A stretch of 63,602 nt of DNA, filler included, from Bigelowiella natans CCMP2755 (taxonomy: Eukaryota; Protista; Cercozoa), in the NCBI GenBank assembly GCA_000320545.1. It is 6 parts of 6 records of this genome, joined end to end, with 100 filler letters (N's around TTAATTAATTAA, not from the genome) between each part and the next. Parts side by side here need not be neighbours in the genome. Positions count along the whole stretch, not along the records: positions 40,770 to 46,751 come from ADNK01002644.1; 5 more parts are not named here. The stretch is one strand, 5' to 3'. Made by a program: the position numbers and the translations under genes. Positions 19,377 to 55,323 of this stretch are shown piece after piece (the stretch's first letter is position 1; the number at the start of each line of letters is the position of its first letter). The notes beneath the pieces were generated by a model. That model did no database searches and was not told the origin of the DNA. It saw only the letters and a list, made by a program, of their open reading frames with translations.

Positions 19377-22300
19377 TTACGAGAAGAGAATAACACCTGA
19401 GTATTCTCTTAGAATGTGCTCGAATGCCAGCTTTTGCAGACCCACTTTGCATTCTGCGACCACCTCATGAGCGATGTTGTTTCTTGAATTCAAATAGCTT
19501 CGGAGCTTCCTCGTAATTCTTCCATGCTTGGCAGCACGATATTGTTCTTCTGTTCCAAAGTAACCTCCACTATTTTTGTTGTTAGCACATTCTCTGACAT
19601 GTTCATGAGCGTCTTCACCACAATCAACCAAGTCCCAAGCGCAGAAACCACAACCACAATTGTCACACTTGACAGCAAAACAACCCGTGAAGCCCATGAA
19701 CCCAACCTGCATAAATGAATGTTTTATTTTTTCTGGAATATTCAACGCTGCCAAGTGAGATCAACGCGGGAGACAAAAGTGTTTCATTAAAAGTCTAGAA
19801 CCTTGCATCGTGGACATGAATCTAAAGCCTCGACACCCCAATAGTCCGGATGATCCACTGATTTTGTCTTGTCCCCTAGAAAGTAGGCAGTTGAGAATTC
19901 GTTAAACAAGCAAGGTCGGTTGGTATCTTTAAAGAGGCCAATTGGTATCTTTAAAATGGACATATCTAGACCTCCGAAGCTCAAGAGAATGTGCGTCTCA
20001 ATGTGAAGGCGAGCTTGGTACACCTCCCGCTTCTTTTTATCAAGCTTCTTGAATTTCTACAATACCAGATAATTCAAAATCATTCAGATTCGACTAAAAG
20101 ATAGAGGTAAGGTCTTTATTACCTCCAACTCCGTAGAAAGCTCATCTTTGTAGTTCTTCTCTAATTTCTTTGTCAATTTCATTTCAGCTAATTTTTTCTT
20201 TGTGTTAATATATGTCTGAAAGACTTCGGGGGTCGTATGAAGGGCCACCTCCAGATCTGAGTTTGATTGTGATTTAATCGTGTACCTTTTAATTTTTCAC
20301 TATCCAAATGCTGACACCAGCCAGAAACTCAAAGGAAATTACCTGTGAAAGGCTGACTGTTGCACCTTTTGTCCTTTCCATATGACAGAGGACACCTGTA
20401 TATGCATATACTTTTCACACTATGTGACGAACATTGGATTGCAAATTGCATTTTGGCGCACCCTACAAAGCCGTTACGCTCGACAAGTTTATAGGTCTCG
20501 CTGTCATTTGAGAATGCCCGGACAAAGTGATTGAAAGCTGATCAGAACGTAAAGATTTATTAGCATGACTGGAGCATTTCATTTTCTAACAATGAGAACC
20601 TTCATGGCAAGTGAAATGAGGGAGTCCATTTGCGTTCGAGCACATGATGCCCTCAGATAGGCTGTGCTGGGTGAAGGTAGATGAACATGTGCGTGTCGGC
20701 TCAACCCCTGCGTCACTGAAGACTCTATGCGTGAGTATCTGAGCAGCAGACGGCCTCCGTGCATCGTTGTGTCGACTGCGACTCCCCGATGAAGCTTTAA
20801 TAGGCTTTAGGAGAGCAACCAAGATTTGGGCCTGATCGGGCGTGATTAGTTTTTCCGAACGAGCTCTCTGAACATCCTTTACAGTCAAAAGCATTCTTGC
20901 CGAAAGAGCATAGCCCATTGTAATCGCAAATGAGTACATATCAGAGCTTGGCGACGGCGGCATCTTGCCATTTAACACTTGTGGGTCAATGTATCCATGA
21001 GTTCCGTACACCTTCGTAGTAGTATTGCCCAACGAGAACTCGTCATTTTTCTTCACTTTGCAAGTATCAAAGTCTGCAATCACCGCATACTCAGGATCAT
21101 CAACGGTTACTTTCTTCTTCTCATTGTTCTTACAGGAGCTAACAGGAGGTCCGATCAAGATGTTAGCAGGCTTGAGATCACGGTGCACAACACCAGCATG
21201 GTGTAGAAATTGTAGTCCTTCCAGTACCCCTTTTAACATCCTGATGCATTTTTGATGATATACTTCTTTAGGAGTCTTCCCATTTTGCGTATTCGGGCTG
21301 CTGCGTTTCGAGTCCAAGACAGCCTTGTGCTCTCTTTTGATCCAGCTTTGAAAGTCACTTTTGTAAAAAGGGATTTGTATGTACCACGAATCTTCATCCT
21401 TACAGATTCCAGTTAAAGGTACGATGTTGTGGTGATTCATTGACGCCATCACGTGACACGCGCGTCGCAACTGCTTGAGCTTTTCACCGCTGGCATGGAA
21501 CTGCTTGAGCACCACTTTAGTTTGTAAGGAGGTACCATTTTTTAGCCCCTTTTTCTCATTGATCTCTGTCTCACTGCGCCCCCACCTTTCCTGCTGAAGA
21601 ATCTTGATGATGTGGGTATTTGAATGTCCCTGTGCCTTGCACACTCGGATCACATCTATTTGACTTTTCTTATTGGCGAGACATTTTCTAATGATTGAGC
21701 GAAGTTCGCAGTTAGGCTTAGCAACCTTGGCCTCTTCGTTAGCAGCAGCATCAGCAGTAGCGCTCGCAACCGGCATCGTTGATGCAGTGGTGGCAACATA
21801 GAGATTTCTCTGAGAATGGCTGCCCTTAAGCGGCTGCAAGTTCTCATAGTGAAGTAACGATCTAATTTCTATTCCGTTGGCTGTCGTTCCGCTCAATGGG
21901 TTCATGTCGGGATACTTGAACAACAATTCTGGCAGATATTTTGACATTCTAAACAGCTGAGACCGCGCACGAAGCAGCTCTGGATTCTTTTGCATCTTTT
22001 TCATCTGTCCTTTAAGTTCCTTTACTTTGTCGTCTATGTCATCATCATTGAAATCCAAGTCCTCTAGAGACTTGTCCTGGCAAACCAAAGATTTGTTATT
22101 GTGTAAGTCCTTATATGCATCGGCAGAACGACAGCAAAAGAGAAAAGTAAACTCTGAAATTGAATATTCTTTCCTAACCTGGAGATCATCGATTTTGAAT
22201 CTTAACTCCTTCCTCTTTTTACGAAACAAACGAATCGAATCCTCATATCTTTTCGACCCCTCTTCCGCCTTTCTGAAATTTGCAATGTGCTGCTGAAGAC

Positions 22301-23480
22301 ATTGGATCTGATTCTTTGAATCACGCAAACTACGGAGGCCACTGATGCATGAGTTTTGGAACTCTTGTAATGCGAAAGAAATCTTAGTATGTATTTGGTT
22401 GGCTTCCCTTAGAATTGCTCCGAGGAAGGGATTCAGATCCCTTCTAAGCGATTCAATGGCGCGGAAAAATACTTTGCTAATTATCAATGCAGAGTAAAAT
22501 TAGGCGTGCTTCCAGATTACAAAGACTATGCTCCAATGTACCTTTTGTCAGCAACCTTCTCAGCTGCGGGTCGGCACTGAAGTGACGTAGAGGAGCCTTT
22601 ACCCTCTAAGCACCATGATATCTCCTGGAAATTAGGGTAGCTCAGGTCTAAAATTTTCCAGGAAGTTTTGCTTGCACGTACCTGATACAGATTTTGCTCT
22701 TGATTTCGGGCATTCCAGACGTCCACCCATGCCTTTTTAGAGGACTCAAAACTGCGTTCAACTGATTTTTGCAACTCCGTGACCGGAGACACGTTATCTA
22801 AATCAGGAGATAAGCTATTGCAAAATTTTCCTATGCCTTTAATGTATGCCATTACTGAGCTGTGTACGGTTGCAAGACTCCTTTCTATTTTGGCGTCTTT
22901 TTCCTTCAGTGCCTTTAGGTCAGCAATAGATTTGTCCAAGGCTACGAGGGATGCAGAAGCCTAGAAACAATGCAAGTTTGAAGGCATTTAAATGAAACAA
23001 CAAAAACAACCGCCAAAACCTTTTTATTGTTCTCTATATAAATGGTGGCTCGTTCCTTTATCAGTCTGGATATTTCTTTCTTGCAATTCTTCTTTGCTTC
23101 AGAATCCTTCGCAATTTTCAGATTTTTCAATTGTGAGGCAAGAGACTTGTTTGGAGCTGCCAGAACGTCGTAGACTTTCTCCACATCCATTGTCCGACGG
23201 GAACTTAGATTTCTAAAATTGTAGATATCAATGACGAAAATTTCTGGATAGTATTCACCCAACCTATTTTCTTGTATCAACTCGTTCACGGTATTGTTTA
23301 ATTGCGACAACTCGGAAAGTTTGGATACGACTCGGAACTTGAGAAGGAAAAAATGGTTCATCAGTTGGAGGTATGTTAAGATTTGGGTATACATATAGCT
23401 ACCTCTTGCTTCTCACAATGAAGATATGACATGAATTCTTCAGCAAAGGATGCAAGTTGAATGCCTGGACTAGATTCTAT
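19377..23480 (-). CDS. Coiled-coil plus Ser/Thr protein kinase plus RING/IBR (RBR-like) zinc-finger region; probably the 3' part of the ankyrin gene
   Basis: Kinase motifs VVLKQF, HHNIVPL, VVHRDLKPANIL, IADFD (DFG variant), YGTHGYIDPQ, SDMYSF. C-terminal Cys/His clusters include CPRCK and GFTGCFAVKCDNCGCGFCAWDLVDCGEDAHEHVREC. Short GT-AG introns are in phase. Confidence 0.8.
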
Positions 23481-23766
23481 CTAAACAATACAAACACCAA
23501 GTAACACGAAATAAACGAAGGAACTTAATCAGTCTTTTCGATTCGGAAACATATTATTAATGCAATGCTGTGTGATTTACGAGTGAATGTGGGAGTCTCG
23601 ATCAAAATTTATTATCCCCAAATTTATATGCATTTAAACAGCTACATTTGCGTATACGTGCAACTGCTCCGACGAGCAAAATAATCACTCTATAAAAAAT
23701 TCTTCAATACACTGTGTAGAGAGCATCTACCAAATTATGTTAAATTTAAACATCAAGTACGTGAAT

Positions 23767-23816
<50 letters not shown>

Positions 23817-23964
23817 TATAATAGTCGCATGCTGCTGGATGTAATGTAAAAATATAAACACAAATTGTTAATTATATCTCCCAAAAACATAGATGCGTAC
23901 CATTGAAGCATATGATATAAATCTCTATGTTGATTAAGATAAATGTATCACTCATACACAATAC

Positions 23965-24005
<41 letters not shown>

Positions 24006-24216
24006 TGTATTAATCTTACCATCGCACTGGCTTATTCAAAAGAAGCCACAAAAATTTGAAAAAATATATTCTAATAAAATATGAATTTTTGAAAATTCTG
24101 TTTCTAAAAAAAGCAGGATTTTTAGAAAAAACTTCTCTTCCCTTTTCAACCTCTGCTAATCTTAAATTATGGTTCTAACTAATTATGTTTTCTTAGGATT
24201 CGTCAAATACACATAA

Positions 24217-24247
<31 letters not shown>

Positions 24248-24659
24248 GTAAATATGTAATATACACAAAGTAGTATACATCGTTCCACTCCGAAGAGTAA
24301 TTCTCCTATCTTTATCATATACACGATGCGACCAGCTAATCTCATGCTAGGTATCTAAGAGATTTGGGACTCACATGCTACTGATAAAAGATTCAAAATA
24401 TAACAATACATATTGAATCTATATCTATCCGAACATTAGCATTGTAGGAATCATAGGTGCCGCATCATATTATCTTTATCTTTATCAAGACGAAAACATA
24501 ACTCAATAATCACACAAGACACAACGACAAATATAAACATATAAATATGTCAATAAATCAATAAATGAATGTGTGACTATAATATATATATATATATGTA
24601 TATATATATGATCGGTGCGACCGGTTGATTAAAATACACACACACACACACACACACAC

Positions 24660-24706
<47 letters not shown>

Positions 24707-24725
24707 AAAGCGATGCGAACCGTGC

Positions 24726-24770
<45 letters not shown>

Positions 24771-25132
24771 TATAATTTGTATTCGACACAAAATCTCTAC
24801 TCGCTTGCGTCATATTAGCTAGCTACTGCTGGCACTGGATGTTGGCGCTGCATCGTTTGATCATTAATGATAGGAGATTTACTACCCAGGGTAGATCGAT
24901 ATGTATACGTAAATATGTATTTGCATAAGTTATGCGGGTGTGAGTCTAAACAGAACAAATACGATGATTCAAATATAAATAACTTTGTGGAGCTCAGATA
25001 CATTAGGAGAAGGATATAGAGAAAGATAGTGCTGGTGTGTGTGTTTGTGTTTGTGTTTGTGCGGTTCTGAGAATAATAATGTGCTTATGAAACGGCTAGT
25101 TCTACGCCTTAAACCGTTCTATTCGGGCCTAC

Positions 25133-25184
25133 CTTCTTCTGTGCGCGTTTCAAGTCCTCTTGTCTAACGAATCACGATGCGATC

Positions 25185-25215
<31 letters not shown>

Positions 25216-25233
25216 TAATTATAAATAATATAT

Positions 25234-25266
<33 letters not shown>

Positions 25267-27864
25267 TATATCCAGACATGTATTTGTGATTGAGCGCATG
25301 TCACAAAAATAAAGTAACATAAACGAAAGATCTTTTCCGTCTTGTTGAACTTCTTGCCTGGCTTTTTCCTCAGCTTCCTTGCGTCTCCTCTCCACCTCCT
25401 CGGCCTCTTGCTTTGCCTTTTTCTCAGCTTCTCTGCGTCTCCTCTCCACCTCCTCAGCTTCTTGCCTGGCCTTCTTCTCAACCTCATCACGAATTTTCTG
25501 AATCTCTTCATCATTGCGGAGAAAATGAACGATATCGTTATGACCTTGCTCGTTAGCCCAGTACAATGCGGTATTGCCTAGTGCAAAAATTAAACAAACG
25601 ATTGCGAGGCAAAACAACAGCAGTGTCAATCGCAATCAACTAGCCATCAAATCAACCCTACAACATCAAAAATTGCAACCACAAAACACTCAAACAGACT
25701 ACTAGCAACCCAAAATAACATTGTGTACTACTTCTGCTACAACTACATCTACTACCTCTACTACTATTTCCATTACTCACTACTCACTACTCAAAACTAT
25801 TACTAAGACCAATATCACTACTGCTACCAACAACAATTACCATCACCCACCCAACACTGCAAATACTGCCTAAACGCTAGCAATACTGCAGCTGCTACCC
25901 ACCGTATTTATTCTTCGCCTCGATGTTTGCCTTCATACCAACCAGGTACTTGACGGTCTCCAAATGACCATTGAAAGATCCCAAAATCAACGGCGTACCA
26001 CCTGGTGGTATGCGACCGCATTTTAGACGCACAAACAACAATGACACATGTATACAATATCAGCAACCATCCTCAAACTAACTTCTAATTAAATTAACTT
26101 TTGTAAAACTAATATTACTGTCTCTACTAATATCAATGCTCAGTTTACCAGTCTCTGCTACTCACTACACAATGCTGATACAGCTTCTACCTCTTGTACT
26201 CACTACTCAGAAACTATTGCTAAGACCAATATCACTACTGCTACCAACAACAATTACCATCACCCACCCAACACTGCAAATACTGCCTGAACGCTAGCAA
26301 TCATGCAGCTGCTACCCACCGTTATCGTTCTTTGCCTCGATGTTTGCCTTCATACCAACCAGGTACTTGACGGTCTCCAAATGGCCATATCTACAACCCA
26401 AAATCAACGGTGTCCAACCTGATGGTATGCGACCGCATTTTAGACGCACAAACAACAATGACACATGTATACAATATCAGCAACCATCCTCAAACTAACT
26501 TCTAATTAAATTAACTTTTGTAAAACTAATATTACTGTCTCTACTAATATCAATGCTCAGTTTACCAGTCTCTGCTACTCACTACACAATGCTGATACAG
26601 CTTCTACCTCTTGTACTCACTACTCAAAACTATTACTAATACCAACATCACTACTGCTACCAACAATAATTACCATCACCCACCCAACACTGCAAATACT
26701 GCCCAAACGCTAGCAATACTGCAGCTGCTACCCACCGTTATCGGCCTTTGCCTCGATGTTTGCCTTCATACCAATCAGGTACTTGACGATCTCCAAATGG
26801 CCCTTCCAAGATCCCGAAATCAACGGTGTCCAACCTGGAGGTATGCGACCGCATTTTAGACGCACAAACAACAATGACACATGTATACAATATCAGCAAC
26901 CATCCTCAAACTAACTTCTAATTAAATTAACTTTTGTAAAACGGCCTTTGCCTCGATGTTTGCCTTCATACCAATCAGGTACTTGACGATCTCCAAATGG
27001 CCTTTGTTAGAACCCGAAATCAACGGTGTTTTACCTGGTGGTATGCGACCGCATTTTAGACGCACAAACAACAATGACACATGTATACAATATCAGCAAC
27101 CATCCTCAAACTAACTTCTAATTAAATTAACTTTTGTAAAACTAATATTACTGTCTCTACTAATATCAATGCTCAGTTTACCAGTCTCTGCTACTCACTA
27201 CACAATGCTGATACAGCTTCTACCTCTTGTACTCACCACTCAAAACTATTGCTAATACTAATATCACTACTGCTACCAACAACAATTACCATCACCCACC
27301 CAACACTGCAAATACTGCCCAAACGCTAGCAATACTGCAGCTGCTACCCACCGTTATCGGCCTTTGCCTCGATGTTTGCCTTCATACCAATCAGGTACTT
27401 GACGATCTCCAAATGGCCCTTCCAAGATCCCGAAATCAACGGTGTCCAACCTGGAGGTATACGACCGCATTTTAGACGCACAAACAACAATGACACATGT
27501 ATACAATATCAGCAACCATCCTCAAACTAACTTCTAATTAAATTAACTTTTGTAAAACTAATATTACTGTCTCTACTAATATCAATGCTCAGTTTACCAG
27601 TCTCTGCTACTCACTACACAATGCTGATACAGCTTCTACCTCTTGTACTCACCACTCAAAACTATTGCTAATACTAATATCACTACTGCTACCAACAACA
27701 ATTACCATTACCCACCCAACACTGCAAATACTGCCTAAACGCTAGCAATCATGCAGCTGCTACCCACCGTTATCGTTCTTCGCCTCGATGTTTGCCTTTT
27801 GCTCGATCAAACACTTCAGTCGTGCGAGATCGTTGTTCCTTGCTGCTTTGAAGATGTCAGACAT
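25133..27864 (-). CDS. Ankyrin-repeat exons (N-cap, five internal 33-aa repeats, C-cap) plus E/K/R coiled coil
   Basis: Exons: 27768-27864 (N-cap MSDIFKAARNNDL...), 27352-27450, about 26942-27034 (truncated), 26736-26834, 26320-26418, 25903-26001. Each full internal exon is 99 nt, GxTPLIxGxxxGHLExVKYLxGMKANIEAK, phase 1-1. C-cap from 25577 (GNTALYWANEQGHNDIVHFL). Small exon near 25133-25163 (QEDLKRAQKK). Confidence 0.9.
25780..27800. repeat. Tandem exon+intron repeat, about 416-bp period, about 5 units, one with a 216-bp deletion
   Basis: Near-identical blocks such as GACCGCATTTTAGACGCACAAACAACAATGACACATGTATACAATATC recur near 26013, 26431, 26847, 27047 and 27463. Confidence 0.95.
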
Positions 27865-31373: not shown

Positions 31374-31473
31374 NNNNNNNNNNNNNNNNNNNNNNNNNNN
31401 NNNNNNNNNNNNNNNNNTTAATTAATTAANNNNNNNNNNNNNNNNNNNNNNNNNNNNNNNNNNNNNNNNNNNN
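31374..31473. other. Artificial contig linker
   Basis: N-run, TTAATTAATTAA (stops in all six frames), N-run; 100 nt. Identical linkers at 40670-40769, 46752-46851, 60957-61056 and 62423-62522. Confidence 0.98.
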
Positions 31474-38279: not shown

Positions 38280-39086
38280 AGAAAGTTGGGGGCCAACAAC
38301 AGCAAATTTTAGCCTTGATCCTCCAGATCCTCCACTATTATTTCCTTATCGCATACGCAATGTCACTATCCGCATCGTATATTTTACCCAGATCATCGTC
38401 ATCACAATCACTATCATCGTCATCACCATCACCATCACCATCACCATCACCATCACCATCACCATCACCATCACCATCACCATCACCATCACCATCACCA
38501 TCATCATTGTTAACTGTGAAAATTTGCAATCCCACAATGGGGCCACAAATAGAACAGATTATTGAATGAAGCAACCTTGTCATCATCAAATGTAAATGGA
38601 GTTATATAATTATTATCGTTAGCTCTGACGTTTATCTGATACACGTATGAACCTATTCCCGGCAATGTACATGCATCTATGGGTTCATGCAAATGCAATG
38701 AGCAAAATTAAGCATGCAGTTTATCACAAGTGCATATAAATTTCCTAGATGCTGTAGTGGAAATAGTAGGCGTCATTATTATTGTGAAATGCATGCATTT
38801 GTGTTGTTACACGACGTTTACGTACATGCATGCGTATAAAAGGCGTCAGCGTCCCAGCTTAGCGTTTCAAGCCCATGTCATGTGCCTTATAATGCACTGT
38901 GTGATGCAATATGCACAAGTTATATTATACGAGTCATGTAACATGTATGCCAGTTTGGACAGCGCTATATGCATAAGCTGTGCGCACACCCAGACTACGA
39001 CTGGCACGCATGGCGGTACAGGGTATCTAGATGAACAAAGACATGCGTACACGATCATGATCAGCTAATAGAGACAAGTAGTCACC

Positions 39087-39129
<43 letters not shown>

Positions 39130-39132
<3 letters not shown>

Positions 39133-39507
39133 GGCAATCTTGGAAAATTCATGCTGTCACGTGGACAATGCACAGAGGAAGATGCCACGTGCGATGCATG
39201 TGGCATCCTGAAGGACATGGATCATCTCCTGCAATGTCCAACACATGGTCGAGAACAAATCAGATTGCGCAATCAAATGCGCGCGATCGTGAATCGCAAC
39301 GACGACACGAACCGGCTGACAAAGGCTGAAAAGGACTCCAGAACTGCTGCGCGCAGTGCGCGGCAACATCGGTCGCATGAGGACGCTTTCAAATGCATGA
39401 AACACATTGTGGCAGAAACCAACAGATGCAACATTAGCGCTGTAGCCGCTGCATTGCACAGCTACATCAGGATGACCATGAAAAAATTTAATTCTTCATT
39501 ACATCCG

Positions 39508-40769: not shown

Positions 40770-41556
40770 GGTCCTCCAAAGAGCTAGAGGCTGGCCAACA
40801 GGTGGAAGTCATCGAGTCTACAAAGCTTTCTCAGCACATTGGCTTTTTCGAGTTTATCGGCCTCCCACGCGGCGAGTACATCGTTCGTTGCATCAGCACT
40901 GCTCTCGGCAAGAAGAAGGCCACTTTTGAAGTCTATGCTCCTGAGGTAGATGATATGGGGGTGTTGAAGCGAATGGGGGAGGGGGGGGGGGAGGATGAAA
41001 GGCGTTGGTAGACTCTAAAGTGGAAGTAAGGTTTTTGTGCTGCTACCGTCTGTATACCAAGTCAACGATGACCGATGTGTTGGGTTAATGAAGGTACATC
41101 TCGATCTGTCGGAGTCACACGAGCACATAGAAATGAGCTTCCACGCGGAGTATAAGATGGAGGACGATATGGCTAGTGCCGCAGGGTCCGTGATATCGCT
41201 GCTAGCGGGGCTGATGATCTTCGGCTCTATCGTCTTTCACAGCGAAGTGAAGAGGGGGTATAAGAAATTCGTCGCTATGTTCTCCAGCAAAGGTACGGAT
41301 TACTGGGGACTGGTGTGTCGGGTTAAAGAATGTGTGCGAGAACAATATATAAGGGAAAAGGAGAGGGGGGGGGGGGGGGGAGATCTCCCATGATGGAAAG
41401 ACCGAATATCAAGAAGCCAAATGCCAAAATATCATCGGCATCAGGATTTACTCAGTTTGGTTTTTGATTTTTTGTTTGTTTGTATGAGCATAACAATATC
41501 TAATCCAAACGAAAAAAGGAAGTTGGCGAGTTCGTTACGTGTGCTTTTACAATTGA

Positions 41557-41596
<40 letters not shown>

Positions 41597-41734
41597 CATA
41601 TAAATTTGACAGAAAAGCTGGTGGGTGAAAAGGCTAGAGGCGGCAGTAGCGGCCAAAGTAGAGGGGCCAACTTCGAGACGAAGAGAAGAAGCAATTTAAA
41701 ATCGAGGAAAAAGAACAAGCATAGACGTTCGTAA
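40770..41734 (+). CDS. C-terminal exons of a NOMO (nodal modulator)-like type I membrane protein
   Basis: GFFEFIGLPRGEYIV...|VHLDLSESHEHIEMSF...TM segment (VISLLAGLMIFGSIVF)...|basic tail ending KKNKHRRS*. Confidence 0.55.
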
Positions 41735-42160
41735 ACGGCCGAAGACGGCGGCATAATCAGAGTAGCTATGTGGCAAATTAATGAAATAAGCTTGAGAGAT
41801 CTCCTTGCGAGCGACGATGCAGTAGTGCGACGGCCGTTGTGTATTAATGGCGGGATCGGACATCTTGCGAAAAAAGTAAGCAAGGGAGGTGGTGGCCTTG
41901 CTAGCCTGCTTGCTTTGCGAACAACGACAGAATGGCCATCTAGAGATTGCAAAACAAACACTACTATCCAATGCCTAGATTATTGCCCAGGATTTTGGTC
42001 ATGGCTAGATGGTGCGCCCTGTTGTCACACGCGCAACGCATGTGATTCGATCATATGTACAATGCATGCCCTTTTGGTTGTCTGGTGTGTGAACATGAGA
42101 TCAGCTACAGGCAAATGAGGCATGGTCAATTGTTGCCAGCAGACTACTACACCATGCCCC

Positions 42161-42480
42161 ACATTTGATTTCCCATCTGCCGTCAGTAGGGGAATGACAC
42201 AAAATTTTCATTTCAAAAATTCACCTGCTGACGACCTACTGCTGAACTGAATTGCTAGAATGACATGGCAAAATTGCACGAGCATGACATGTCAAGTGTT
42301 CGACATTTGATTTCCCATCAGCAATCAGTAGCAAAATGTGCGAAAATGCGCAACATGAAAGCTTCACCCACTGACGACCTGCTGCTGAACTGAATTGCCA
42401 TGATGACATGATGAAAATCCCCGGCACATCCCATGTGTTTTGTGAAAACAATCTTTGTTGAAAATGACATGGCAAAATCC
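42161..42480. repeat. Degenerate direct repeat, about 143-bp period (two copies plus a partial)
   Basis: ACATTTGATTTCCCATC near 42161 and 42303; CTGACGACCTRCTGCTGAACTGAATTGC at 42228 and 42371; AATGACATGGCAAAAT near 42259 and 42463. Confidence 0.85.
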
Positions 42481-42532
42481 ACAGCAGAGCATCGTTGAAA
42501 CACTGCAAATTTGTTCTCACCTGAAATGATGA

Positions 42533-43264
42533 ATGAGAACATTCAAATCAAAAAAAGGAAAACCATTGGATGAATGGCTGACTGAAAAACAATTCAGATC
42601 TTTGAAGAACAAAAGATTTTTGCATGCAATGTCGTCTAACATGGACACATGCAAAAGGAAATCTACTGAAGAACTTGTGGTTAAATTTGGGCAAGGCAAG
42701 GGAACTCAACCAGCATCAAGATTAAAAGATTACATGTCATATTGTGGATGCACTGATAGCAAAAGGCCCTGGATGGGTTGCAAATTACATCATTCATTCA
42801 TCACTGAAAAGAGTAAAAAAGTAGCAGCTACAAACTCCATGGTTCACAAACATGAACTAAAATCAAAACAGCATGCTAAAAAAAACAACTTGTTAGTAGA
42901 CAGAGGCGATGAAAGGACATTGATAAGACCAAGTAAATTAATGAGAATGTTAGATTGTAAACAATTTGAAAAACTTACAGACATTGAGTCAAAACGTACA
43001 TGCAATTTACGAAATAAAAAGCAGAAATACATCGTTGAAATATTAGACCATGCAAACAAAGCAAAGAAAAATAACCATCAAGAACCTACTACCTTCAAAG
43101 TGAAATACAGTGATGGTAGTGTTGAAGGAACAATTAGAAATGTGTTACCTAATGATGTTAAATCAAAGAATTTTGACAAGTTGTTTAGAGAATATTATGA
43201 AAAATCAAATGATAAAGACAATATTAAATTAGAAGATGAACATAAAAAACATCTTGGTATTTAA
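42533..43264 (+). pseudogene. Viral-type ORF: putative GIY-YIG/T5orf172-like nuclease plus chromodomain-like C-terminus, hypermutated in its 5' two-thirds
   Basis: FL(H)A(M)...VVKFG...SRLKDY...ELK...RGDE layout; C-terminal KYIVEILDH...FKVKYSDG...LFREY. Excess His/Cys/Met where Tyr/Ile would be expected. Confidence 0.5.
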
Positions 43265-43367
43265 TCATCTACTAAAATATCATACATAGCCCATTTTATA
43301 TCTTTATTAAAATCAAATGGTTTTTTCACAATTTGTAATTTGATAAATAAATCACTATTTTCTGTTA

Positions 43368-43475
43368 TCAGTCTAACATTAGATTCATTCTCATAGAAGC
43401 CATATGTTTTTTACTATGATGCTTGCTATGAGCTGCTAATAAATCTTTCTGTCTTTTGGTTAATTTTTTTAACAT
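43368..43475 (-). CDS. Small basic His-rich viral-type ORF (MLKKLTKRQKDLLAAHSKHHSKKHMASMRMNLMLD*), probably truncated
   Basis: Read directly from the minus strand (below the ORF-track cutoff). The KLTKRQK...HSKHHSKKHM motif is one I recall from small marine-virus ORFs. Confidence 0.45.
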   Translation of the reverse strand: MLKKLTKRQKDLLAAHSKHHSKKHMASMRMNLMLD

Positions 43476-43494
43476 TACATTACTACAGATTTTT

Positions 43495-44226
43495 TTATTC
43501 CAATAAAGGAATATCGTATTTATCAACTATTTTTTTATCAATATCACGACTGGGACCTCCAAATAAAACAGAATACAGACGGGCTCTGCTCCAAGACTCG
43601 GCACTTTGATTTGGACGACTTCCTCCAGAATAGTAAGCTCCTTTGCCTTTGTTCATAATTTCTCTTAAAGATTTTAAAGGAACATCTAAAACTTTAGTCA
43701 TATTAGATAAGGATGTATCACCTTTGAAATACTTGTCAGCTTTAACAGTCCATTTGGATTTCTTGCTTTTAAAACTTCTTAACTTTGGTCTGTCTCTACC
43801 ATAAAAAATACTCTCTATTTGTTTTTTCCTATCTTCTTTACTAAGAGATTTTGGAACATACTTCTCATTGATGCTTATCTTATATTTTTTAATTTTATCT
43901 TGAACCTTTTTGCTATTAATCCAATCAAAACCAGCATCTCCCCCCCATCCGGCCCAACTTACGGCACCTCTTCTCCTGTTTCTTTGTCCTTGATCCATTG
44001 GTTTCCCTTGTGCTTTCCATTTGTCATAACCTATTTTTGATACGTATTGATGTCTACTAAACCAAGCATTCATCACCACAATATCTTCAATGTCTATAGC
44101 ATCGTCATATGCTAATTGCTTTGCTCTGTTTATTCCTGTCTCTGTCATTCCTTTCCAACCTATTTTTTTCAATTTCAATGCTAATCTTGCTTTCTTTCTT
44201 ACTTTTATTGGTATTTTTAATTTCAT
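43495..44226 (-). CDS. Viral hypothetical protein with two domains: phage-like GINRAKQLA...WGGDAG domain plus DUF5824-like GAYYSGGSRPNQSAESW domain
   Basis: Intact 243-aa ORF. Both motifs are recalled from phage and algal-virus/PLV hypothetical proteins. Confidence 0.65.
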   Translation of the reverse strand: MKLKIPIKVRKKARLALKLKKIGWKGMTETGINRAKQLAYDDAIDIEDIVVMNAWFSRHQYVSKIGYDKWKAQGKPMDQGQRNRRRGAVSWAGWGGDAGFDWINSKKVQDKIKKYKISINEKYVPKSLSKEDRKKQIESIFYGRDRPKLRSFKSKKSKWTVKADKYFKGDTSLSNMTKVLDVPLKSLREIMNKGKGAYYSGGSRPNQSAESWSRARLYSVLFGGPSRDIDKKIVDKYDIPLLE

Positions 44227-44539
44227 TATTTAATTTGAGAAGATTTTTTATATGCTTTTTAGTGTGTATATGATGTTTATAATATTTTTTAATCACATGT
44301 CTATCACAGAAGGGACAGTATATTTTATCGTGTTTTGTTTTATCTTCATAATAATCTCTGGCATAACAATTAATATAATCTCTATTATCTATTCTATATT
44401 GTTTTATGTCTCTACCTGGAATATTTTTATTAACACATTTTATTTTTATTTTTTCTTCAGCTATTAGTTCTGCTTCTTTCTTTCTTTTCTGATAAACAGA
44501 TATTTTTTTAGCATCCTTTTCTAATATAACTTTAAACAT
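44105..44539 (-). CDS. Lys-rich viral-type protein with C2H2 zinc finger
   Basis: IYCPFCDRHVIKKYYKHHIHTKKHIKN; the ORF overlaps the start of the next viral ORF. Confidence 0.55.
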   Translation of the reverse strand: MFKVILEKDAKKISVYQKRKKEAELIAEEKIKIKCVNKNIPGRDIKQYRIDNRDYINCYARDYYEDKTKHDKIYCPFCDRHVIKKYYKHHIHTKKHIKNLLKLNNEIKNTNKSKKESKISIEIEKNRLERNDRDRNKQSKAISI

Positions 44540-44560
44540 ATAATTATCTCTTTTTAAAAT

Positions 44561-45680
44561 TTGATACGAAGAGCAAAAATTACCAAAACCTTTTTCACAT
44601 GCTATGTTATATGCTTTGATGAGGTTTATATGTATTCACTACATCAACTATCAAAAATTAAGTTATTTATGGATAAGCATGTTGATAAAAAATTTATTGC
44701 TACTGGTGATTTAGCTCAATTGGATCCCATTGAAAACGAATATCTGTTTAACAACATCAAAGACCTTGATGTTAGAACAACTGAAGCTATGAATGATATG
44801 TTCCCTAATCAAATCACTCTTAAAATCTGTAAGAGAGTAAAAACAGACGAGGAAAGAAATACTCTTGCACGATTAAAACAAGAAATATTTGATGTAAAAA
44901 CTAAACCATTTGATGTGCTAAAAAAATATTTTAAAGTTCTTGAAAGTATGGATAAAGTAAAGACTCTTAACAATATTACCTTCTACAACTTTAGATCCCG
45001 TTCAGTAGGTAAGTATATCCACGGTCTACAAAAGAAACCGAGAAAAAAAGTTTATGTAGATGGTATTTGCTACTATGCTGGTATGGAGATTGTGTGTAAA
45101 AAGTATAGTAAGAAACCAAAACTATATGTGAACTACACTTATGAAATTATCAAAGTAAGTAAAAAAGAATTTGTAATACAGGATGTATGTGATTTGGAAG
45201 AAATAAAAGTACCTTTAGAATTAATTAGTAAGCATTTTAGATTATCATATGCCTCTACCTGTCATAGTTTCCAAGGATTATCAGTAGATGGCCCTATCAC
45301 CGTATTCGATACTAACACCTGTAGAATTAATCGCAAGTGGCTCTGGACTGCTATAACTCGTTTAACTGACCTATCACAGATACAAATATATAAGCACAGC
45401 GATAAAGAATGCTACAGATTAAAAGAAAGTATGATTTCTCAAAAACTACGAATGAAAGTATCTTCATATAAATCTCAGGACAAAAGAGGTGGTAGAACTT
45501 GGAAAGATAAAGAATATATTGATGAGGAATGGATAAAAAGAACTGTTAATAATCATCCACAATGTCCTGTGTGTAGATGTGGATTTACTGCTGATAATGT
45601 TTCTGTGGATAGAATTGATAATGCTCTACCCCATCTGTGGAATATTGTAGATTAACTTGTGTGGAGTGTAATCTTAGTAG
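44561..45680 (+). pseudogene. N-terminally truncated SF1 (RecD/Pif1-like) helicase with C-terminal HNH-like zinc domain, frameshifted
   Basis: Walker B ICFDEVYM, ATGDLAQLDPI, YASTCHSFQG, WTAITR; no Walker A. Then CPVC...VDRIDNALPH, with the completing CRLTCVECN in another frame just after about 45645. Confidence 0.75.
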
Positions 45681-46039
45681 AAATAACCAACAAACATATC
45701 CAGCATTTGGTGAATACACTCCTCAGGATGTTGAATTCGAAGATGGCTTTGAGGATCAATGGGTGAAACCTGGGTGCGAAAACACCATCACTGGGCTGGA
45801 GCTTTGAGGCATCGTGTGCCCGAAAAATTGATGCTATCTTTGCCATGTCGGCCACACGTGTCAGTTCTTCACCGGAGACTCTCCACGCTGCTGAGCATTC
45901 TTCCGAGTAATTAATCTTCGGACACTAACGGACACTAACGGGCAATACCGGAAATACTCCCGGTAATGCTCTTTCCGGGGATTCGCCGCAACGAGAGTCT
46001 CACGTGAAGATCTTCACACCAGACTCGAAATCAGACTCG

Positions 46040-46751
46040 ATGAAGCGTAGTGGATCTTTTGACGGGAAAAGGAAGGTAGATGAAAGAATCCCTAGCAGGA
46101 GAAGTTCGAAAGCACAGGTACTTGTCCTACGAGGCTTGCGTTCGGGAGCTTAAGGTTTGATGTGTTCTCAGCGTTCTGAGGCATGGGGAATTCAGATCCA
46201 ACTTGCAAAGCAGGAAATCTTGAAATTGAGGGATGAAAGAAAAGCTTTGAGCATCGCTTGGGCAACGGAGAAGAATAAGGAGAAAGAAGAGGCGCTCAAG
46301 GGTGCTATTGACAAATTGGACGAGGAAATTCAGGCGAAGGAGGCAGAACTGAAGGAAACGATAAAGAAATTCGAGGAGGCAACCCAAGGTTATGAATTCT
46401 GTTAACATCTGAGGAAACAATCGGTGTGCTGAAATATTTATGCGTATGTGTTCAGCCATGGAAATTGAGGAAAGCGGGGGGATAATTTTGACAGAAAACC
46501 CTGCCGGAGGAGAGTATGCCAAAGCCCTTGTTGAAGCAGAAAAGAGAGATGTTGGCGATGTGAAAATCTCCAAATTCCTGCCCATGGTGCTACTGACAGT
46601 GAGCACGGTATTCATCCCTGGTTTCACCGTAATTGCGAAGGAAGAAGCAAAGCGCATGGAGGACAAGGAGATTGAAGGCATTCTTATATTTGGTAGAAGG
46701 TGTTTTCTTCAAGTTTTGAAGGAGTTTCGTCGACTCCGCGAGGAATACATC
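46040..46751 (+). CDS. Spliced coiled-coil protein, possibly Crinkler/RHS-like N-terminal part; truncated by contig end
   Basis: Three in-phase exons (MKRSG...KAQ|RSEAWG...EEATQ|AMEIEE...). Ends LIFGRRCFLQVLKEF, which resembles the LFVRxCY segment upstream of CRN/RHS P-loops. Confidence 0.4.
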
Positions 46752-47637
46752 NNNNNNNNNNNNNNNNNNNNNNNNNNNNNNNNNNNNNNNNNNNNTTAAT
46801 TAATTAANNNNNNNNNNNNNNNNNNNNNNNNNNNNNNNNNNNNNNNNNNNNTGGCTTCCAATATGATGGACGCGTTGGAGCTGCTGCGGATGATTTCTCC
46901 TCGTGTTCTCGCTTTTCAAAGCATTGAGGAGAGCGCAACTTGCATGACGATGGGGTTTTAGAATATCCGAAATCTGGCACGCCCTCCTGCAACGGAAGCT
47001 GCTCTCAGTACGCTGATTGCGTATTTGGCCAAAGGGACTTTTAGGGACGATGCCTTCTATTCCTCACCACGGCAAACACAAGATAAGAGATAATCGCGCC
47101 CGCCCTTCGATCGTATACTGCTGGGCTGTCAACGGGAAGTAGCTAGGAAGGATGATGAAGATGATAAGAAGGAGGAAAGGGCCCGGGAGGGGAGGGGCGT
47201 GGTATGTTCCTGATGTGTTCTGATCCGGTGCTCGCCCTTCTGCCTACGTGTTGGAAAAACACCGATCGTTTTTAGCTAGTGCGACATAATTTTATTCTTT
47301 GTCGCAGGGTAAAATAAGAATGCGTTTCACCAGATCATCCTTGGGATTTCCTGATTTCCTGCGAATTTGTCACTGATTTTGCCCAGATTCGGCTCTGATT
47401 CACCTCGGTATTGCTGTGCTGCCCCTGTCCTCAAAACCCTGCTTCTTTCTCTGTTCTTTTCATGTGTGTGTTTCCCTGGCTGAGCTTGCTCTCTTTTTGC
47501 TCCACAAAAACAGTTTGATGCACAGGTAGAAGACGGATCTCAGGCCTCAGAGAATTCGAATCCCCTCCTCCCTCCCCTTCCCCACTGAAAGAAAGCGACA
47601 GCAACGCGTCGTAGGCTCATCATCTCCTCCTCCCCCC

Positions 47638-49602
47638 ATGCGTGAAGTTGTGACAATACACCTTGGCCAGGCTGGATCACAGGTGCGTGGAAACCTATGC
47701 TATATGACTGGGCGCGTCCGTTCTTGCAGCACAATTACAGCAATTATATCCGTTCCCTGAAGATGATGAATAGCCCCTCCTTTCGTCGTATAGAGAGAGA
47801 CCCATATCTCCGCAACACCAGGTCGGGACGTCGTGCTGGGAGCTGTTTTGCTACGAGCATGGAATTCAGCCAAACGGAACATTAGCGGAGGAGTATAAAG
47901 GAGGTATTTGCCTTTGTCAATGCTCAGCATTCTATTGTAGACACGCAACTTTCTCCGTCCACGGAGCCAATCCCCGCCCCCCCCCTTTCCCAAAGACAAA
48001 TCTTTTCAGACGTTCTTCGGCGAGACGGAATCGAAGAAGTACATTCCACGTTCGGTCTTCTTGGATATGGAACCAAGCACCATCGACGAGATTCGGTCGG
48101 GGGTGTACCGGAGGCTCTTCCACCCCGACATGATGATTAGCGGCTCCGAGGACGCCGCGAACAACTTCGCGCGGGGCCACTACACCGTGGGGAAGGGCAT
48201 GATCGAGGTTTGCCTCGATCGAATCCGGAAGCTTGCAGATACGTGCTCGGGCCTGCAAGGGTTCATGCTATTCAATTCCGTCGGTGGCGGGACGGGGTCC
48301 CGCTTTGGAGCTCTATTGCTCGAGCGGCTGAGCGCGGATTATGGGAAGAAGTCTAAACTCAGCTTCAGCATCTACCCCTCGCCGCAGGTCCGTCTCGTCG
48401 GGTGAAGTGGGGGGAGAGTGCGCCTCTCCTCTTTCCTTTTCTTCTTCTTCTTCTTCTTCGCATGAGAGACTGACGAAGAAGGAGAAGAAGACGAAGATGG
48501 AGGGAGGGAGGGAGGGAGGGAGGGAGGGAGGGAGAGAAAGCAAGAGAGATCACGCACGTATGTGACTCACGCGAGTATATACCCGTGTCTTCCATCACAA
48601 AACGAACAAGCAAGTTAATTTTGAGATTATGGTCCTTTTCATCGCTCCTTGAGCTTCTCTTCGTCCTTCCCCGTCCTGCCTCTTTCGCCGCTACTCCTGC
48701 TGCTGCTGCTGCTGCTGTTTCTGACTAGGTCTCCACATCTGTCGTAGAGCCTTACAACACCGTCCTCAGCACGCACGCCTTTCTCGAACACACGGACGTT
48801 GCGGTGATAATGGACAACGAGGCCATTTACGACCTGTGCATGGAGCGGTTGGACGTGAGGCGTCCATTCTATACCAACCTCAACCAAGTTGTGGCGCAGG
48901 TCATCTCCTCGCTGACAGCATCACTAAGGTAAAACGGAAAAGGGCAGGGGGGGAGCGATGAGTGGTATGGAGCTTGCTTTTCCAGAATAATGAACAGTCG
49001 TCATTAGAAGCGGGGTAATACAGCTTCCTCACTGCATATAGAAGTATGCATGAAAAGCAGTGATGACACCTCTCCCCCTCCCCCTCCCCCTCCCCCTCCT
49101 CCTCCTTATCAGATTTGACGGCCTACTCAATGTGGATATGACTGAATTCCAGACGAATCTGGTGCCGTATCCTCGGCTGCATTTCATGCTGTCTTCCTAT
49201 GCGCCGCTAATCTCTAACTCCAAAGCAACACACGAGCAGCTCAAGATAAAGGATATCACCATCTCGGCCTTTCAGCCGACGAATATGATGGTGCGCTCCT
49301 TCGCATGTGACATTATATGAATTTTGAAAAGAAAAGGAAAACGACACGCGTACAGCCAACACTAATACGATAACAGGTGAAGTGTGACCCCCGCGAGGGG
49401 AAGTACATGGCGTGCTGCCTCATGTATCGAGGCGATGTGGTTCCGAAAGAAACAGGTGCAGGCATTGCCATCGTCAGGCAGAAGAAAATGGTAAGATTTC
49501 CATTATGTGTGTATTAAACGATAGCAGAGACAATTGCATCTTGGAAGCGATGCTCTTCGTTCAGCGAAGTTGCAGTTTGCACGTGTGTGTATGTGTATAT
49601 GC

Positions 49603-50501: not shown

Positions 50502-52410
50502 GAGAATGGATTTATTACAAGGTTTGGAGAGGAGGTGATGCCGCTACTCGTCGTAGTATTACGTGTCGGTGATGTGCATTCCCGCAAATTTACTACTTAT
50601 TCAGGGCAAATATTCGTTGGTCATATTTGCCCCTGGAGGCGGCGCTCGGCGTGTTCTGTGGACTTGGTGTGCGCCCAGACTATGAGAGGAGCTGCAGTCC
50701 TTATGTGGCGTGGTGGCGAGAAGAACATCTTTCAATAGGTTTGAGCGAGAGGGGGGGGGGGGGGATTGATAGGTTAGTTACAAGCTAGCATGGCATAATG
50801 GGGATGATGGTGATGCTGATGATTTGATGGTGATGATGATGATGGACGGTGAAGGCGACGATATTATGATATATAACAAAGACGATGATGTAAACATTTG
50901 ACATACTCTGTACCATCTCTGTCTGCAGCGTTTTCGTTTTTGCTTTGTGTTTATTACGATTTTACGGTCGAATATAGCATCGGACTTAGTAAGTTTATTA
51001 TGCATAATATGCATCGATCGAATCAATCGAAATGCGCGTGGCACGATTCATGCATTATGCAGTGGCAGGCCGCGCGATGAAGTTCATGCGACGTGCGGCG
51101 CGATTGCACAATTCTAGACTGGCTAATCTGGCACCAAAATGACAATGATCGATTTGTCGTTAAGCTATACAAACCTGCGATGCAGAGCAGTCTAGCAGTC
51201 TTTCAATCGCAACGCCATCTAGCCATGTCTTGCTAGCTTGGCCTTGCAGTACATTGTTGTAATAAATCTATCTTTTACGTACTATCAAATAAAGTTTAAT
51301 AGGATAACAAGATCTGTCTCTAGCCCTTTAATTGAATGCAACGTATGTACATTAACTCGACCCTTCGAAGGCGCTAATACAATATTTGAAACAGAGGAGG
51401 ATGAGTACCAGTTTATTGGTAAATTTTATAGAGGAATGTTCAGCGAAGTTGATGTAGCCTTTACGGAAAAGGAAGAAAACAAAAAAATCTGTGCTTTAGC
51501 TGCAGCTTATGGAGCATTTGACTACTGAACAGGCCTACCAAGTTTTCTATTTAGATCTAGATTGTATCTATTGTTTTTTTGTGAATAACAAATTCCTTAA
51601 AACTTTATTTTTGAGATGCATTTAATGTAGTAGCAGAGTTTAGCCCTACATGACTTTGCTAGCAAAATAAACAATGGCGCAGCGCAGCTTCTTGCATGTC
51701 CTGCTTCCGCGCGCGCGCGGCGATGCAACACAGGCGCAGTGGCCCAAAAAAGGGCCTATACTTATTATAGATAATCTGTTTACTCAATATTAGCCGAACA
51801 CTGCTTTTTGCAACGTAAGAATTTTCCGGGTATATTTATTACAGATATGTATCCCAAAACAATTTCAACTATGGCTGGAAATTCTTCAAGCGATCCGTTA
51901 TATGGTTTCCCTATACACTGATGTTGGAAACGTTCTGACGCTTCGACGCGCTTTTTCCATTTCTTCCGAAAAAAGCTGCGACACCATCCAAATTAAAATG
52001 ATGCCTGTAAAAAAGATCCTTCATTGAGACCCCATTTTGGATTTTCTTAGACTTCGCTGTGAAAAATTTTTTTACGTCCAAGCTATAAAATTGACGAAAG
52101 AGGCCAATATTTAAAATGCCCACTAATTTAGGCGAGAGCGACCCCATCAGTTCAATAAGTTTTTTCCAAGGCATTGGAGCTTGAGCGCACCATCGACTTT
52201 CTATGATTTTTAGAACGATAGAACGTAAACATTTTTTTACATCGTTCTGGTCTTTAATTCGCTTCACCAGGATGTTTGTTCGTACCTTTGCTATCCTTGC
52301 TACTGTTATCCTTGCTACTGTTATCCTTGCTACTCCATCATAATTCTGTTGAGCTTCTCGTCGGCATATTCGTCCTTCAGTTTATCGGGGTGGAAATGTT
52401 ACAATGAACA

Positions 52411-54116: not shown

Positions 54117-55323
54117 GAACAAAGAACTACATTTCCAAAAGCTGTTACGCAAGACATTTGCAATGTACCAAATGCAATGCCTCGAACTAACTTCAGTGAG
54201 GGCTACAACTGGTAATGAAGTGATTTGAATGTTTTCAATGGGCATCTTAACGTAGCTATGCGAACCAGTACGTGGCCGTGGCTACAGCGCTTTGCTGTAG
54301 CCCCATTACACAGGCTGCTTCAGCTGCACGCACACACGAACATGTGCATGTAGTTTCTACACCTGTTCTTGACAACACAAAATGCTGCAATGTCATGCAT
54401 TTGTGCCATTTGTCTCATTGATTGCGTGTTTCATGCGCATTTTGAAGCATCTATGCATCCGGTCGTCGATGACATCGTGCGATGCGCGATGCATGTAGTA
54501 CGATGTGACGCACGTGCAGCAGTTCTTCCATGCTGTGTCTACCAGTCAGAAGACTGCTGCTAGATTGCAAAGCGCACAATTGAAAAATGGGCTGGGATGA
54601 AGATGGTCAAAATGGCAACAACACGTCAATTGAGACGTCGACGCATGCAAGCTGTGCACATCCAATTGACAGCGCGCGAGCATGCCAACATGCACACACT
54701 CACACACTAGCATCCACTTGTTCATGCAAGCGTGGCAATGATCCATGGCAATGAAGCACCTGGCAATGTTCTGGTGGCCACAGATGATCACAAACCAGCA
54801 CTAAATCGACCATTGATTCTTGTGATCATGACAGATGACGTGACATGATGCACACATTGTGCACACAGTGTTGCCATGTCCATAACAGACAACGTGGCGG
54901 TCGATCTAGACGGTGGCTATATCCACAAATTATTTGTCTCTGCTATCTGCTATTATGTGTTGCCAGTTGGCCATGCGCATGCGCAAGCATCTGCTTTGAT
55001 GTCGCAAGCGCTCCGTATGTCGCCGATCATGTAGTAATAATCATATGAATATAGCCATAAAGGCTACACCATAGCATATTTTGTAAGCGAACACACTCGC
55101 GAGTGCGTGTGCATAATAAAACTATGTATCGTCTAGATATGTTAATTCATAGGCACATACACGAATATGTAGCCATAAAGCCTCTATATATTTGTTAAAT
55201 AAAAAGGCAGACAGGTTACATGCGAACAAACTCGAGCTACCAAATAGAGACTTATTTAATGTGTATGTCCGTGTATGCGCGTAAACACTAGAAATGCATA
55301 GCAAATAAATATACATAATATTT

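Follow-up and report, generated by a model that had tools for sequence, protein, structure and literature searches.

The left end of a multicopy element in Bigelowiella natans CCMP2755, likely a fragment of an integrated polinton-like virus, has lost TA dinucleotides in a single direction: TA is the ancestral state, and CA or TG, never CG, is the derived state, on both strands. The damage fades over roughly 1.2 kb from the high-copy terminal repeat of the element. TpA to TpG/CpA hypermutation of integrated viral DNA has been measured in B. natans, and an ADAT-type deaminase proposed for it, in the main text of a preprint (Mettrop et al., bioRxiv 10.64898/2026.01.13.699255). The process acting here is almost certainly the one that they described, and we therefore regard the damage in the element as a further locus of it. 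The view taken in an earlier note on this DNA, that no named pathway was known for such changes, is out of date, as the same process had been measured in B. natans in that 2026 preprint. The core claim is thus already known in outline, and what the main text of the preprint does not contain is the flanking-base rule and the ~1.2-kb gradient including the host flank.

The element and its surroundings

The window, i.e., the whole stretch of 63,602 nucleotides (filler included) analyzed here, is intron-rich and microsatellite-rich eukaryotic DNA of B. natans. It is interrupted at 31374, 40670, 46752, 60957, and 62423 by ~100-base gaps with a central 12-base stop-codon linker, across which contiguity is not proven. 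The features in and around the element are as follows.

40780–41699, plus strand: last exons of a host gene, the 3′ UTR of which heads toward the element (exon translations and RNA run X21)
41900–42136, no strand assigned: host flank outside the element with TA loss (spill-over; dinucleotide counts)
42137–42500, no strand assigned: left end of the element, a high-copy terminal repeat region with a 143-bp-period duplication, the core of the TA-free zone
42331–42636, no strand assigned: 306-bp stretch without TA (dinucleotide scan)
42533–43264, plus strand: 243-aa ORF with a GIY-YIG-like N-terminal domain and a chromodomain-like C-terminal domain, TA to CA/TG damage being graded from 5′ to 3′
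43495–44226, minus strand: DUF5824 gene with normal TA content (Pfam PF19141, E=8e-13)
44105–44539, minus strand: small ORF with a C2H2 zinc-finger-like motif recognized by eye (translation; no curated Pfam match)
44604–45700, plus strand: SF1 helicase gene truncated at the 5′ end, the N-terminus missing (UvrD_C_2, E=2.4e-5, which falls short of the curated cut-off); its C-terminal part looks HNH-like by eye only

In RNA run X21, the first mates lie on the plus strand over 41620–42307 with a peak at 41792–41963, and one contig of run X15 reproduces 41620–42225 with zero differences. Contigs branch into varied flanks before 42137, with eight loose ends in DNA run X3 and nine in X7. The summed contig depth in 42136–42479 is ~20 times that of 42996–44543 (2142/1773 at the left-end repeat versus 77–136 in run X3), a depth that does not equal copy number. 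The two units of the duplication (42161–42267 and 42303–42410) are 77% alike over 108 nt. At 42438, inside the terminal repeat, 41 minus-strand RNA reads with poly(A)-like tails end, and this position is a possible polyadenylation site, perhaps of other copies.

The element is multicopy and carries DUF5824, SF1 helicase, and GIY-YIG-like genes. Fifteen loci related to the DUF5824 gene were found among viral contigs, in which neither the alignment of the ORF starting at 42533 (hereafter ORF 42533) nor the helicase detected any relative. The helicase gene, largely normal in TA content, is broken in its HNH-like part by a frameshift near 45643, where the X7 contigs show a one-base difference; loose contig ends of X7 also lie before 44604, at the 5′ truncation. 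Among the elements of B. natans that were first called transpovirons and later reassigned to polinton-like viruses, PLV-Bnat is reported to carry a stand-alone GIY-YIG nuclease gene and a Tlr1-like SF1 helicase whose C-terminal part is an HNH domain (Krupovic et al. 2016, PMC5499653). Its gene set resembles that of these elements: the element shares with PLV-Bnat the host and a GIY-YIG-like gene, and its SF1 helicase, the tail of which looks HNH-like by eye, may be a further shared feature. It differs in being a fragment with a 5′-truncated helicase gene and no gene for a capsid protein or a packaging ATPase before the gap at 46753. No gene for a major capsid protein, a minor capsid protein, or a packaging ATPase (A32) was found among the translations and Pfam matches of the ORFs of 41500–47500, the element being internally deleted and running into this gap. 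We regard the element as likely an integrated polinton-like virus fragment, and only as likely because no capsid gene precedes the gap.

Two side observations concern the rest of the element. The region 45700–46750, on the right of the helicase gene, is multicopy DNA with scattered TG versus TA differences (45776, 45847, and 46124), and may be the opposite end of the element or another repeat; the gap at 46753 truncates it. The little-mutated core (43250–45700) contains no CTAG and one GTAC, and several related viral contigs (L002, L007, L008, and L011) also lack CTAG and/or GTAC, possibly reflecting restriction-site avoidance.

TA loss and its gradient

The earlier note had described a stretch free of TA at 42331–42636 and a graded loss around it, and both descriptions stand. 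A TA at 42329 is followed by the next at 42637, leaving 306 bp (39% GC) with none, where 17 TAs are expected at the microsatellite-masked rate of the window (Poisson P=4e-8) and 32 at the rate of the element core. This is the longest TA-free gap of the window, tied with 39127–39435. Outside the CTA/TAG context, no TA survives in 42200–42650, and the counts per 150 bp from 42200 to 43550 rise rightward as 0, 0, 0, 5, 4, 8, 9, 12, and 14. The same gradient appeared in the comparison with L001, an intact DNA homolog with 80% identity and the sole outgroup for the DNA polarity test: the non-CTA/TAG TAs changed to CA/TG were 20 of 25 in 42740–43010, 9 of 24 in 43011–43250, and 2 of 28 in 43251–43580. 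The loss extends ~250 bp into the host flank, where 41901–42200 retains three non-CTA/TAG TAs versus 11.9 expected, with a CA+TG observed/expected ratio of 1.72. Strand bias is not marked (84 TG and 76 CA in 41950–42680).

The 1-kb window 42001–43000, with a rho of 0.37 for TA and 1.73 for CA+TG, lies within the thresholds of Mettrop et al. Both thresholds were passed by 2 of the 63 windows, starting at 18001 and 42001, neither of which belongs to a cluster under their three-window rule. As claimed previously, the copies of the 143-bp repeat differ as CCTACT versus CCTGCT and as TGCTA versus TGCCA. They also differ reciprocally, TG versus CA, at 42226/42369, and most differences within the pair are not TA steps.

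Polarity of the change

A search with ORF 42533 retained 7 proteins among 194 candidates. P0001–P0003, intact homologs with 76–85% identity, come from metagenomes and one transcriptome; P0004 matches residues 81–243 of ORF 42533 at 100% identity; P0005–P0007 are three gene models labelled jgi/Bigna1. At 24 positions, the window copy differs where the intact homologs agree, and 18 of these differences correspond to a single TA to CA/TG step. The residue changes produced by single TA steps are Y to H, Y to C, I to M, L to S, I to T, V to A, and K to E. The intact homologs do not share the His, Cys, and Met residues of the window copy; where the latter has His, Cys, Met, or Ser, they carry Tyr, Ile, or Leu.

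The DNA comparison with L001 gave the same picture. In 42740–43010, transitions were found at 22 of the 77 bases within TA versus 8 of the 124 other A/T bases (p=3e-5). By site, TA to CA/TG predominates, 22 of 38 TAs in this region being changed versus 2 of 24 for the reverse, CA/TG to TA. The products across the whole L001 alignment were 22 CA, 14 TG, and 0 CG.

Other genomic copies carry the same changes. P0005–P0007 contain no Tyr in 163, 163, and 147 aa, respectively, versus 11 in residues 81–243 of P0001. Relative to the window copy, the contigs of the DNA runs showed 379 A>G/T>C versus 139 G>A/C>T differences in X3 and 381 versus 143 in X7, two runs that may not be independent. Since the contig differences are mostly A>G/T>C, the other genomic copies are more heavily mutated than the window copy. 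Among the 40 listed of the 811 differences, 19 of the 22 G>A/C>T differences restore TA (background ~38%). A context comparison among other copies at 45080–45340 drew on 15 and 5 contigs with 15 differences, too few to be informative. Altogether, what had been proposed from the sequence holds in the homologs and the other genomic copies: TA turns into TG/CA, only TA steps are affected, the loss is regional and graded, and the target is viral.

The damaged ORF

The TA to CA/TG changes in ORF 42533 are non-synonymous and predicted to be damaging. The composition noted before for the first 160 residues (6 His, 6 Cys, 8 Met, and 2 Tyr) was confirmed, P0001 having 2, 1, 6, and 11, respectively. In a profile built from 91 distant homologs, the intact proteins scored 155–160 bits and the window copy 131 bits, and Tyr31, invariant across 86 homologs, is His in the window copy. 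Of the four peptides that the earlier note had restored by reverting TG/CA to TA, SYYGY occurs exactly in P0001 and P0002, while FLYVI, VH[KN]YELKLKQY, and P[AET]YNLR stand in the homologs where the other three had been predicted.

The GIY-YIG-like reading of the ORF, also proposed before, is supported by the Pfam matches of its relatives and by a fold search. Among 86 relatives, T5orf172 was matched in 11, MUG113 in 5, and Chromo in 5, the first two of which we take to be members of the GIY-YIG clan. ORF 42533 itself and its six closest homologs, P0001 included, gave nothing above noise in Pfam. A structure model with a pLDDT of 88 aligns to Slx1 (Z 4.7, rmsd 3.9, 92 aa), a moderate match, as well as to HIGLE, UvrC, R.Eco29kI, and I-TevI at Z 2.9–4.3 and, again moderately, to the CHD4 chromodomain at Z 5.3. 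Foldseek with the pLDDT 88 model gave no match at E<=0.001, the best being Slx1 with E=0.26, and a fold from three sequences of the family was unusable (pLDDT 32). As a lead only, a GIY-YIG-containing cluster ranked first (0.90) in an Atlas feature search. ORF 42533 is thereby a putative stand-alone GIY-YIG-like nuclease gene with moderate support.

These data bear on whether chance, codon bias, or deamination of 5-methylcytosine could have generated the pattern. TA is mildly scarce across the window (3293 observed versus 4279 expected) and CpG is low in the element, both of which would suit such causes. The earlier statement that CpG persists was only partly right in this respect, as the CpG observed/expected ratio is 0.21–0.50 throughout the element (0.50 in 42130–42530, 0.21 in 42533–43010, and 0.42 in the little-mutated core). 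Against these causes, the TA-free run has a P of ~4e-8, the changes are non-synonymous with one at an invariant Tyr, and TA in the related viral contigs has an observed/expected ratio of 0.74–0.97 (16 of 16 loci). As the ancestral state is TA and not CG, 5-methylcytosine deamination is excluded, and the polarized alignments refute this group of explanations as a whole, which we find scarcely credible.

Other TA-depleted patches

The same signature was found at three more places of the window.

17700–19700, no strand assigned: patch, depleted in TA and rich in CA/TG, that lies between two convergent host genes and extends into the last exon of each (dinucleotide counts)
39129–39480, plus strand: TA-free 3′ end of a non-LTR retrotransposon, adjoining a (TA)n run (homologous copies)
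54300–54900, no strand assigned: TA-depleted, CA/TG-rich patch after the 3′ end of a host gene (dinucleotide counts)

No homology to mobile elements was found for 17700–19700, and the longest ORF in this patch (18131–18700, 189 aa) had no homolog among 99 candidates; it is probably a frame opened by the loss of stop codons. In the retrotransposon (39.13–39.48k), losses of Tyr to His or Cys are common to copies with 93–97% identity (Bigna1 models). Since near-identical copies share these losses, the damage may have been inherited from a source copy, which may have spread despite its TA depletion. Pfam searches of 18 ORFs from the patches and from the right side of the element yielded nothing at the curated cut-off.

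The patches at 17.7–19.7k and 54.3–54.9k and that of the element (41.9–42.8k) each start just past the 3′ end of a host gene, a lead only with four patches in total. The process may then be no defense at all and rather a side effect of where transcripts end or of chromatin borders, with repeats merely located where it acts. The RNA reads of the gene upstream of the element stop near the start of the patch, the minus-strand RNA reads carrying poly(A)-like tails stop at 42438, and the loss weakens with distance from the host gene, all in keeping with this reading. On the other side, the four patches were chosen by their signature, the reads ending at 42438 may stem from other repeat copies, and P0005–P0007 are mutated along the whole ORF. 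Furthermore, the strongest target in the main text of the preprint is an NCLDV insertion of 186 kb that is present in a single copy and transcriptionally silent (10.64898/2026.01.13.699255). We consider a by-product of this kind decidedly unlikely.

Several other regions of the window were recorded in passing. The intergenic regions 401–1100, 38300–39100, and 51000–51350 are CA/TG-rich with alternating purine-pyrimidine words and normal TA, a signature unlike that of the patches. A large AT-rich gene or gene cluster on the minus strand (19377–27860) includes a protein-kinase ORF (20586–22004; Pfam E=4e-27) and, by eye, a cysteine-rich IBR-like last exon; at 25900–27800 lie 416-bp tandem exon-intron repeats that look ankyrin-repeat-like by eye. 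At 47640–48400 lies a divergent gene for tubulin (Pfam Tubulin, E=1e-26), which looks alpha-like by eye.

Flanking-base context

The surviving TAs were pooled from the four patches (3210 bp). The observed counts (expected in parentheses) were 17 (12.4) for CTAG, 17 (24.8) for CTAC/GTAG, 9 (27.8) for CTAA/TTAG, 3 (27.8) for CTAT/ATAG, 1 (15.7) for TTAA, and 1 (15.7) for ATAT. The patches were picked on the loss of non-CTA/TAG TAs, so the contrast between CTA/TAG and the rest is partly circular, while the ranking within CTA/TAG is not. In the comparison with L001, 2 of the 13 CTA/TAG sites in 42740–43010 had changed to CA/TG, 7 were kept, and 4 had changed otherwise (p=0.004 if these 4 are left out); for the alignment as a whole, CTA/TAG and other TAs contrasted at p=0.053. 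In P0005–P0007, visible changes were found at 11 of 41 CTA/TAG sites versus 34 of 68 other TAs, counts that are not independent and from which silent changes are invisible. On the product side, R-TG-Y was most enriched (1.74–2.55) and N-TG-G was among the least (0.88–1.54). Thus, TA is partially spared in the order CTAG > CTAC > CTAA, and RTAY is preferred. The earlier observation that the TAs surviving in 42100–42670 are all CTA or TAG holds for 9 of 9. As a rule it holds only in part, in that sites were changed at 42523, 42568, 42838, and 42901 as well as in the repeat pair, and CTAT/ATAG is unspared. Viral methylation as the cause of the CTAG sparing found no support: the available text of a preprint on ChlorV lists no CTAG or GTAC methylation motif.

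Resynthesis of the patches by an error-prone polymerase of the Pol eta type would place A to G errors at WA motifs, which Pol eta prefers, and a graded tract of A:T to G:C changes fits such patch repair. The dinucleotides do not follow: AA is not depleted in the patches (observed/expected 1.02 versus 1.05 elsewhere), AG is not gained (0.78 versus 0.98), and the A/T transitions outside TA stay at the background level of 8 of 124. All GC-biased changes in the viral regions described in the main text of the preprint likewise fall on TpA (10.64898/2026.01.13.699255). We regard the polymerase reading as very unlikely. Of the mechanisms that the earlier note had listed, adenine deamination and a modified thymine remain, and error-prone repair of the WA type is disfavored.

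Proposed mechanism and relation to known systems

The explanation that we favor, and hold to be probable, is a host TpA-specific hypermutation, probably by a DNA adenine deaminase recruited to silenced repeats, that acted on the left end of the element. In each TA step, one base would be damaged (A to inosine in DNA), and replication would fix the change of A:T to G:C. Each TA would be changed once because the first change destroys the motif on both strands, which fits the 0 CG products. The activity may be seeded at the silenced high-copy terminal repeat, guided by chromatin or RNA, and may extend over ~1 kb to the ORF and the flanking host DNA, thereby disabling genes of the element. For the parts of this explanation, we see the chances of adenine deamination being the chemistry as evenly balanced, and think it rather probable that targeting follows repeat or foreign DNA.

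Targeting is not a simple matter of either property. The part of the element at 43250–45700, equally foreign, keeps most of its TAs, and 44888–45403, with a depth similar to that of 42824–42995, shows no TA loss; neither foreignness nor copy number alone therefore predicts the damage. No foreign origin was found for two of the four patches, one of which extends into the last exons of host genes.

With respect to chemistry, the lesion may instead lie on thymine: T in TpA, oxidized to 5-hydroxymethyluracil or 5-formyluracil as a silencing mark, would mispair with G and yield T to C on either strand. 5-Hydroxymethyluracil is a major base in dinoflagellates and has a TA preference, and oxidized T mispairs. 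As TA is palindromic, T to C and A to G leave identical footprints and a lesion on A is indistinguishable from one on T by sequence; the context, furthermore, is unlike that of known adenosine deaminases. The main text of the preprint, by contrast, mentions no TET/JBP-type enzyme or modified base and puts forward an ADAT2-like protein, Bn78255, as a candidate on the basis of only its motif and predicted structure (10.64898/2026.01.13.699255). We judge the thymine lesion somewhat improbable and retain adenine deamination as the working chemistry.

Among adenosine deaminases, ADAR is reported to prefer UAG (PMC11334849), and fungal A-to-I mRNA editing, in which Tad2-Tad3 has a role (PMC11087585), to prefer UAG and UAA (PMC4817773). 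The process here resembles them in the A to G change and in the strong preference for U/T on the 5′ side of A. Their substrate is RNA, however, and their favored 3′ neighbor is G or A; the changes in the element are fixed in DNA, with TAG mutated least of all contexts; a 3′ G/A preference of the ADAR type is seen neither in the products nor in the CTAG survivors. The deaminase reading gains nothing from the context, since the disfavor of TAG is opposite to the preferences of ADAR and fungal mRNA editing. As a tentative possibility, the mutator may be unlike known deaminases: it would recognize a motif in duplex DNA, with RTAY as the best target and CTAG immune, start from high-copy terminal repeats or the ends of host transcripts, and spread ~1 kb, as a reverse of RIP with a context code of its own.

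RIP of filamentous fungi acts on C and changes CpA to TpA in a dinucleotide-specific manner on both strands of mobile DNA, disabling genes with possible spill-over into flanks. The process here shares with RIP the dinucleotide-specific transitions on both strands, the disabling of mobile DNA, and the possible spill-over, and runs in the opposite direction, as seen from the 22 forward and 2 reverse changes in 42740–43010. As for the duplication that triggers RIP, the damage here peaks at the repeat with the highest depth, yet equally deep stretches to the right are spared, summed depth being no copy number. RIP is also named in the discussion of Mettrop et al., in whose main text the principal target in B. 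natans is single-copy, unlike in RIP (10.64898/2026.01.13.699255).

The main text of this preprint reports that, in mutation-accumulation lines, 231 of 302 de novo changes lay in the NCLDV and virophage regions, on TpA, with a de novo rate of ~6e-7 per site per generation at those two loci in some lines; a rise of about 1000-fold in the local mutation rate marks the process. It also describes 124 TpA-depleted clusters, in which reverse-transcriptase and transposase domains are enriched (10.64898/2026.01.13.699255). The locus described here agrees with that process in the species, the change from TpA to TpG/CpA, the involvement of both strands, the viral and retroelement targets, and the candidate chemistry. 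It differs in being a polinton-like virus-like fragment, polarized against intact homologs, with a short gradient from one end. The main text of the preprint contains no flanking-base, strand, or gradient analysis, and the words "trinucleotide," "context," and "gradient" are absent from it; the supplements could hold context data. Apart from this preprint, our literature searches yielded no paper on the matter.

The value of the locus lies in the flanking-base rule (CTAG spared, RTAY favored, opposite to the UAG preference of ADAR), which provides a criterion that applies to any candidate enzyme. The short gradient from a defined end of the element lets targeting and spreading be mapped. Finally, the process explains why the viral and retroelement gene models of B. 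natans are poor in Tyr, rich in His and Cys, and hard to annotate.
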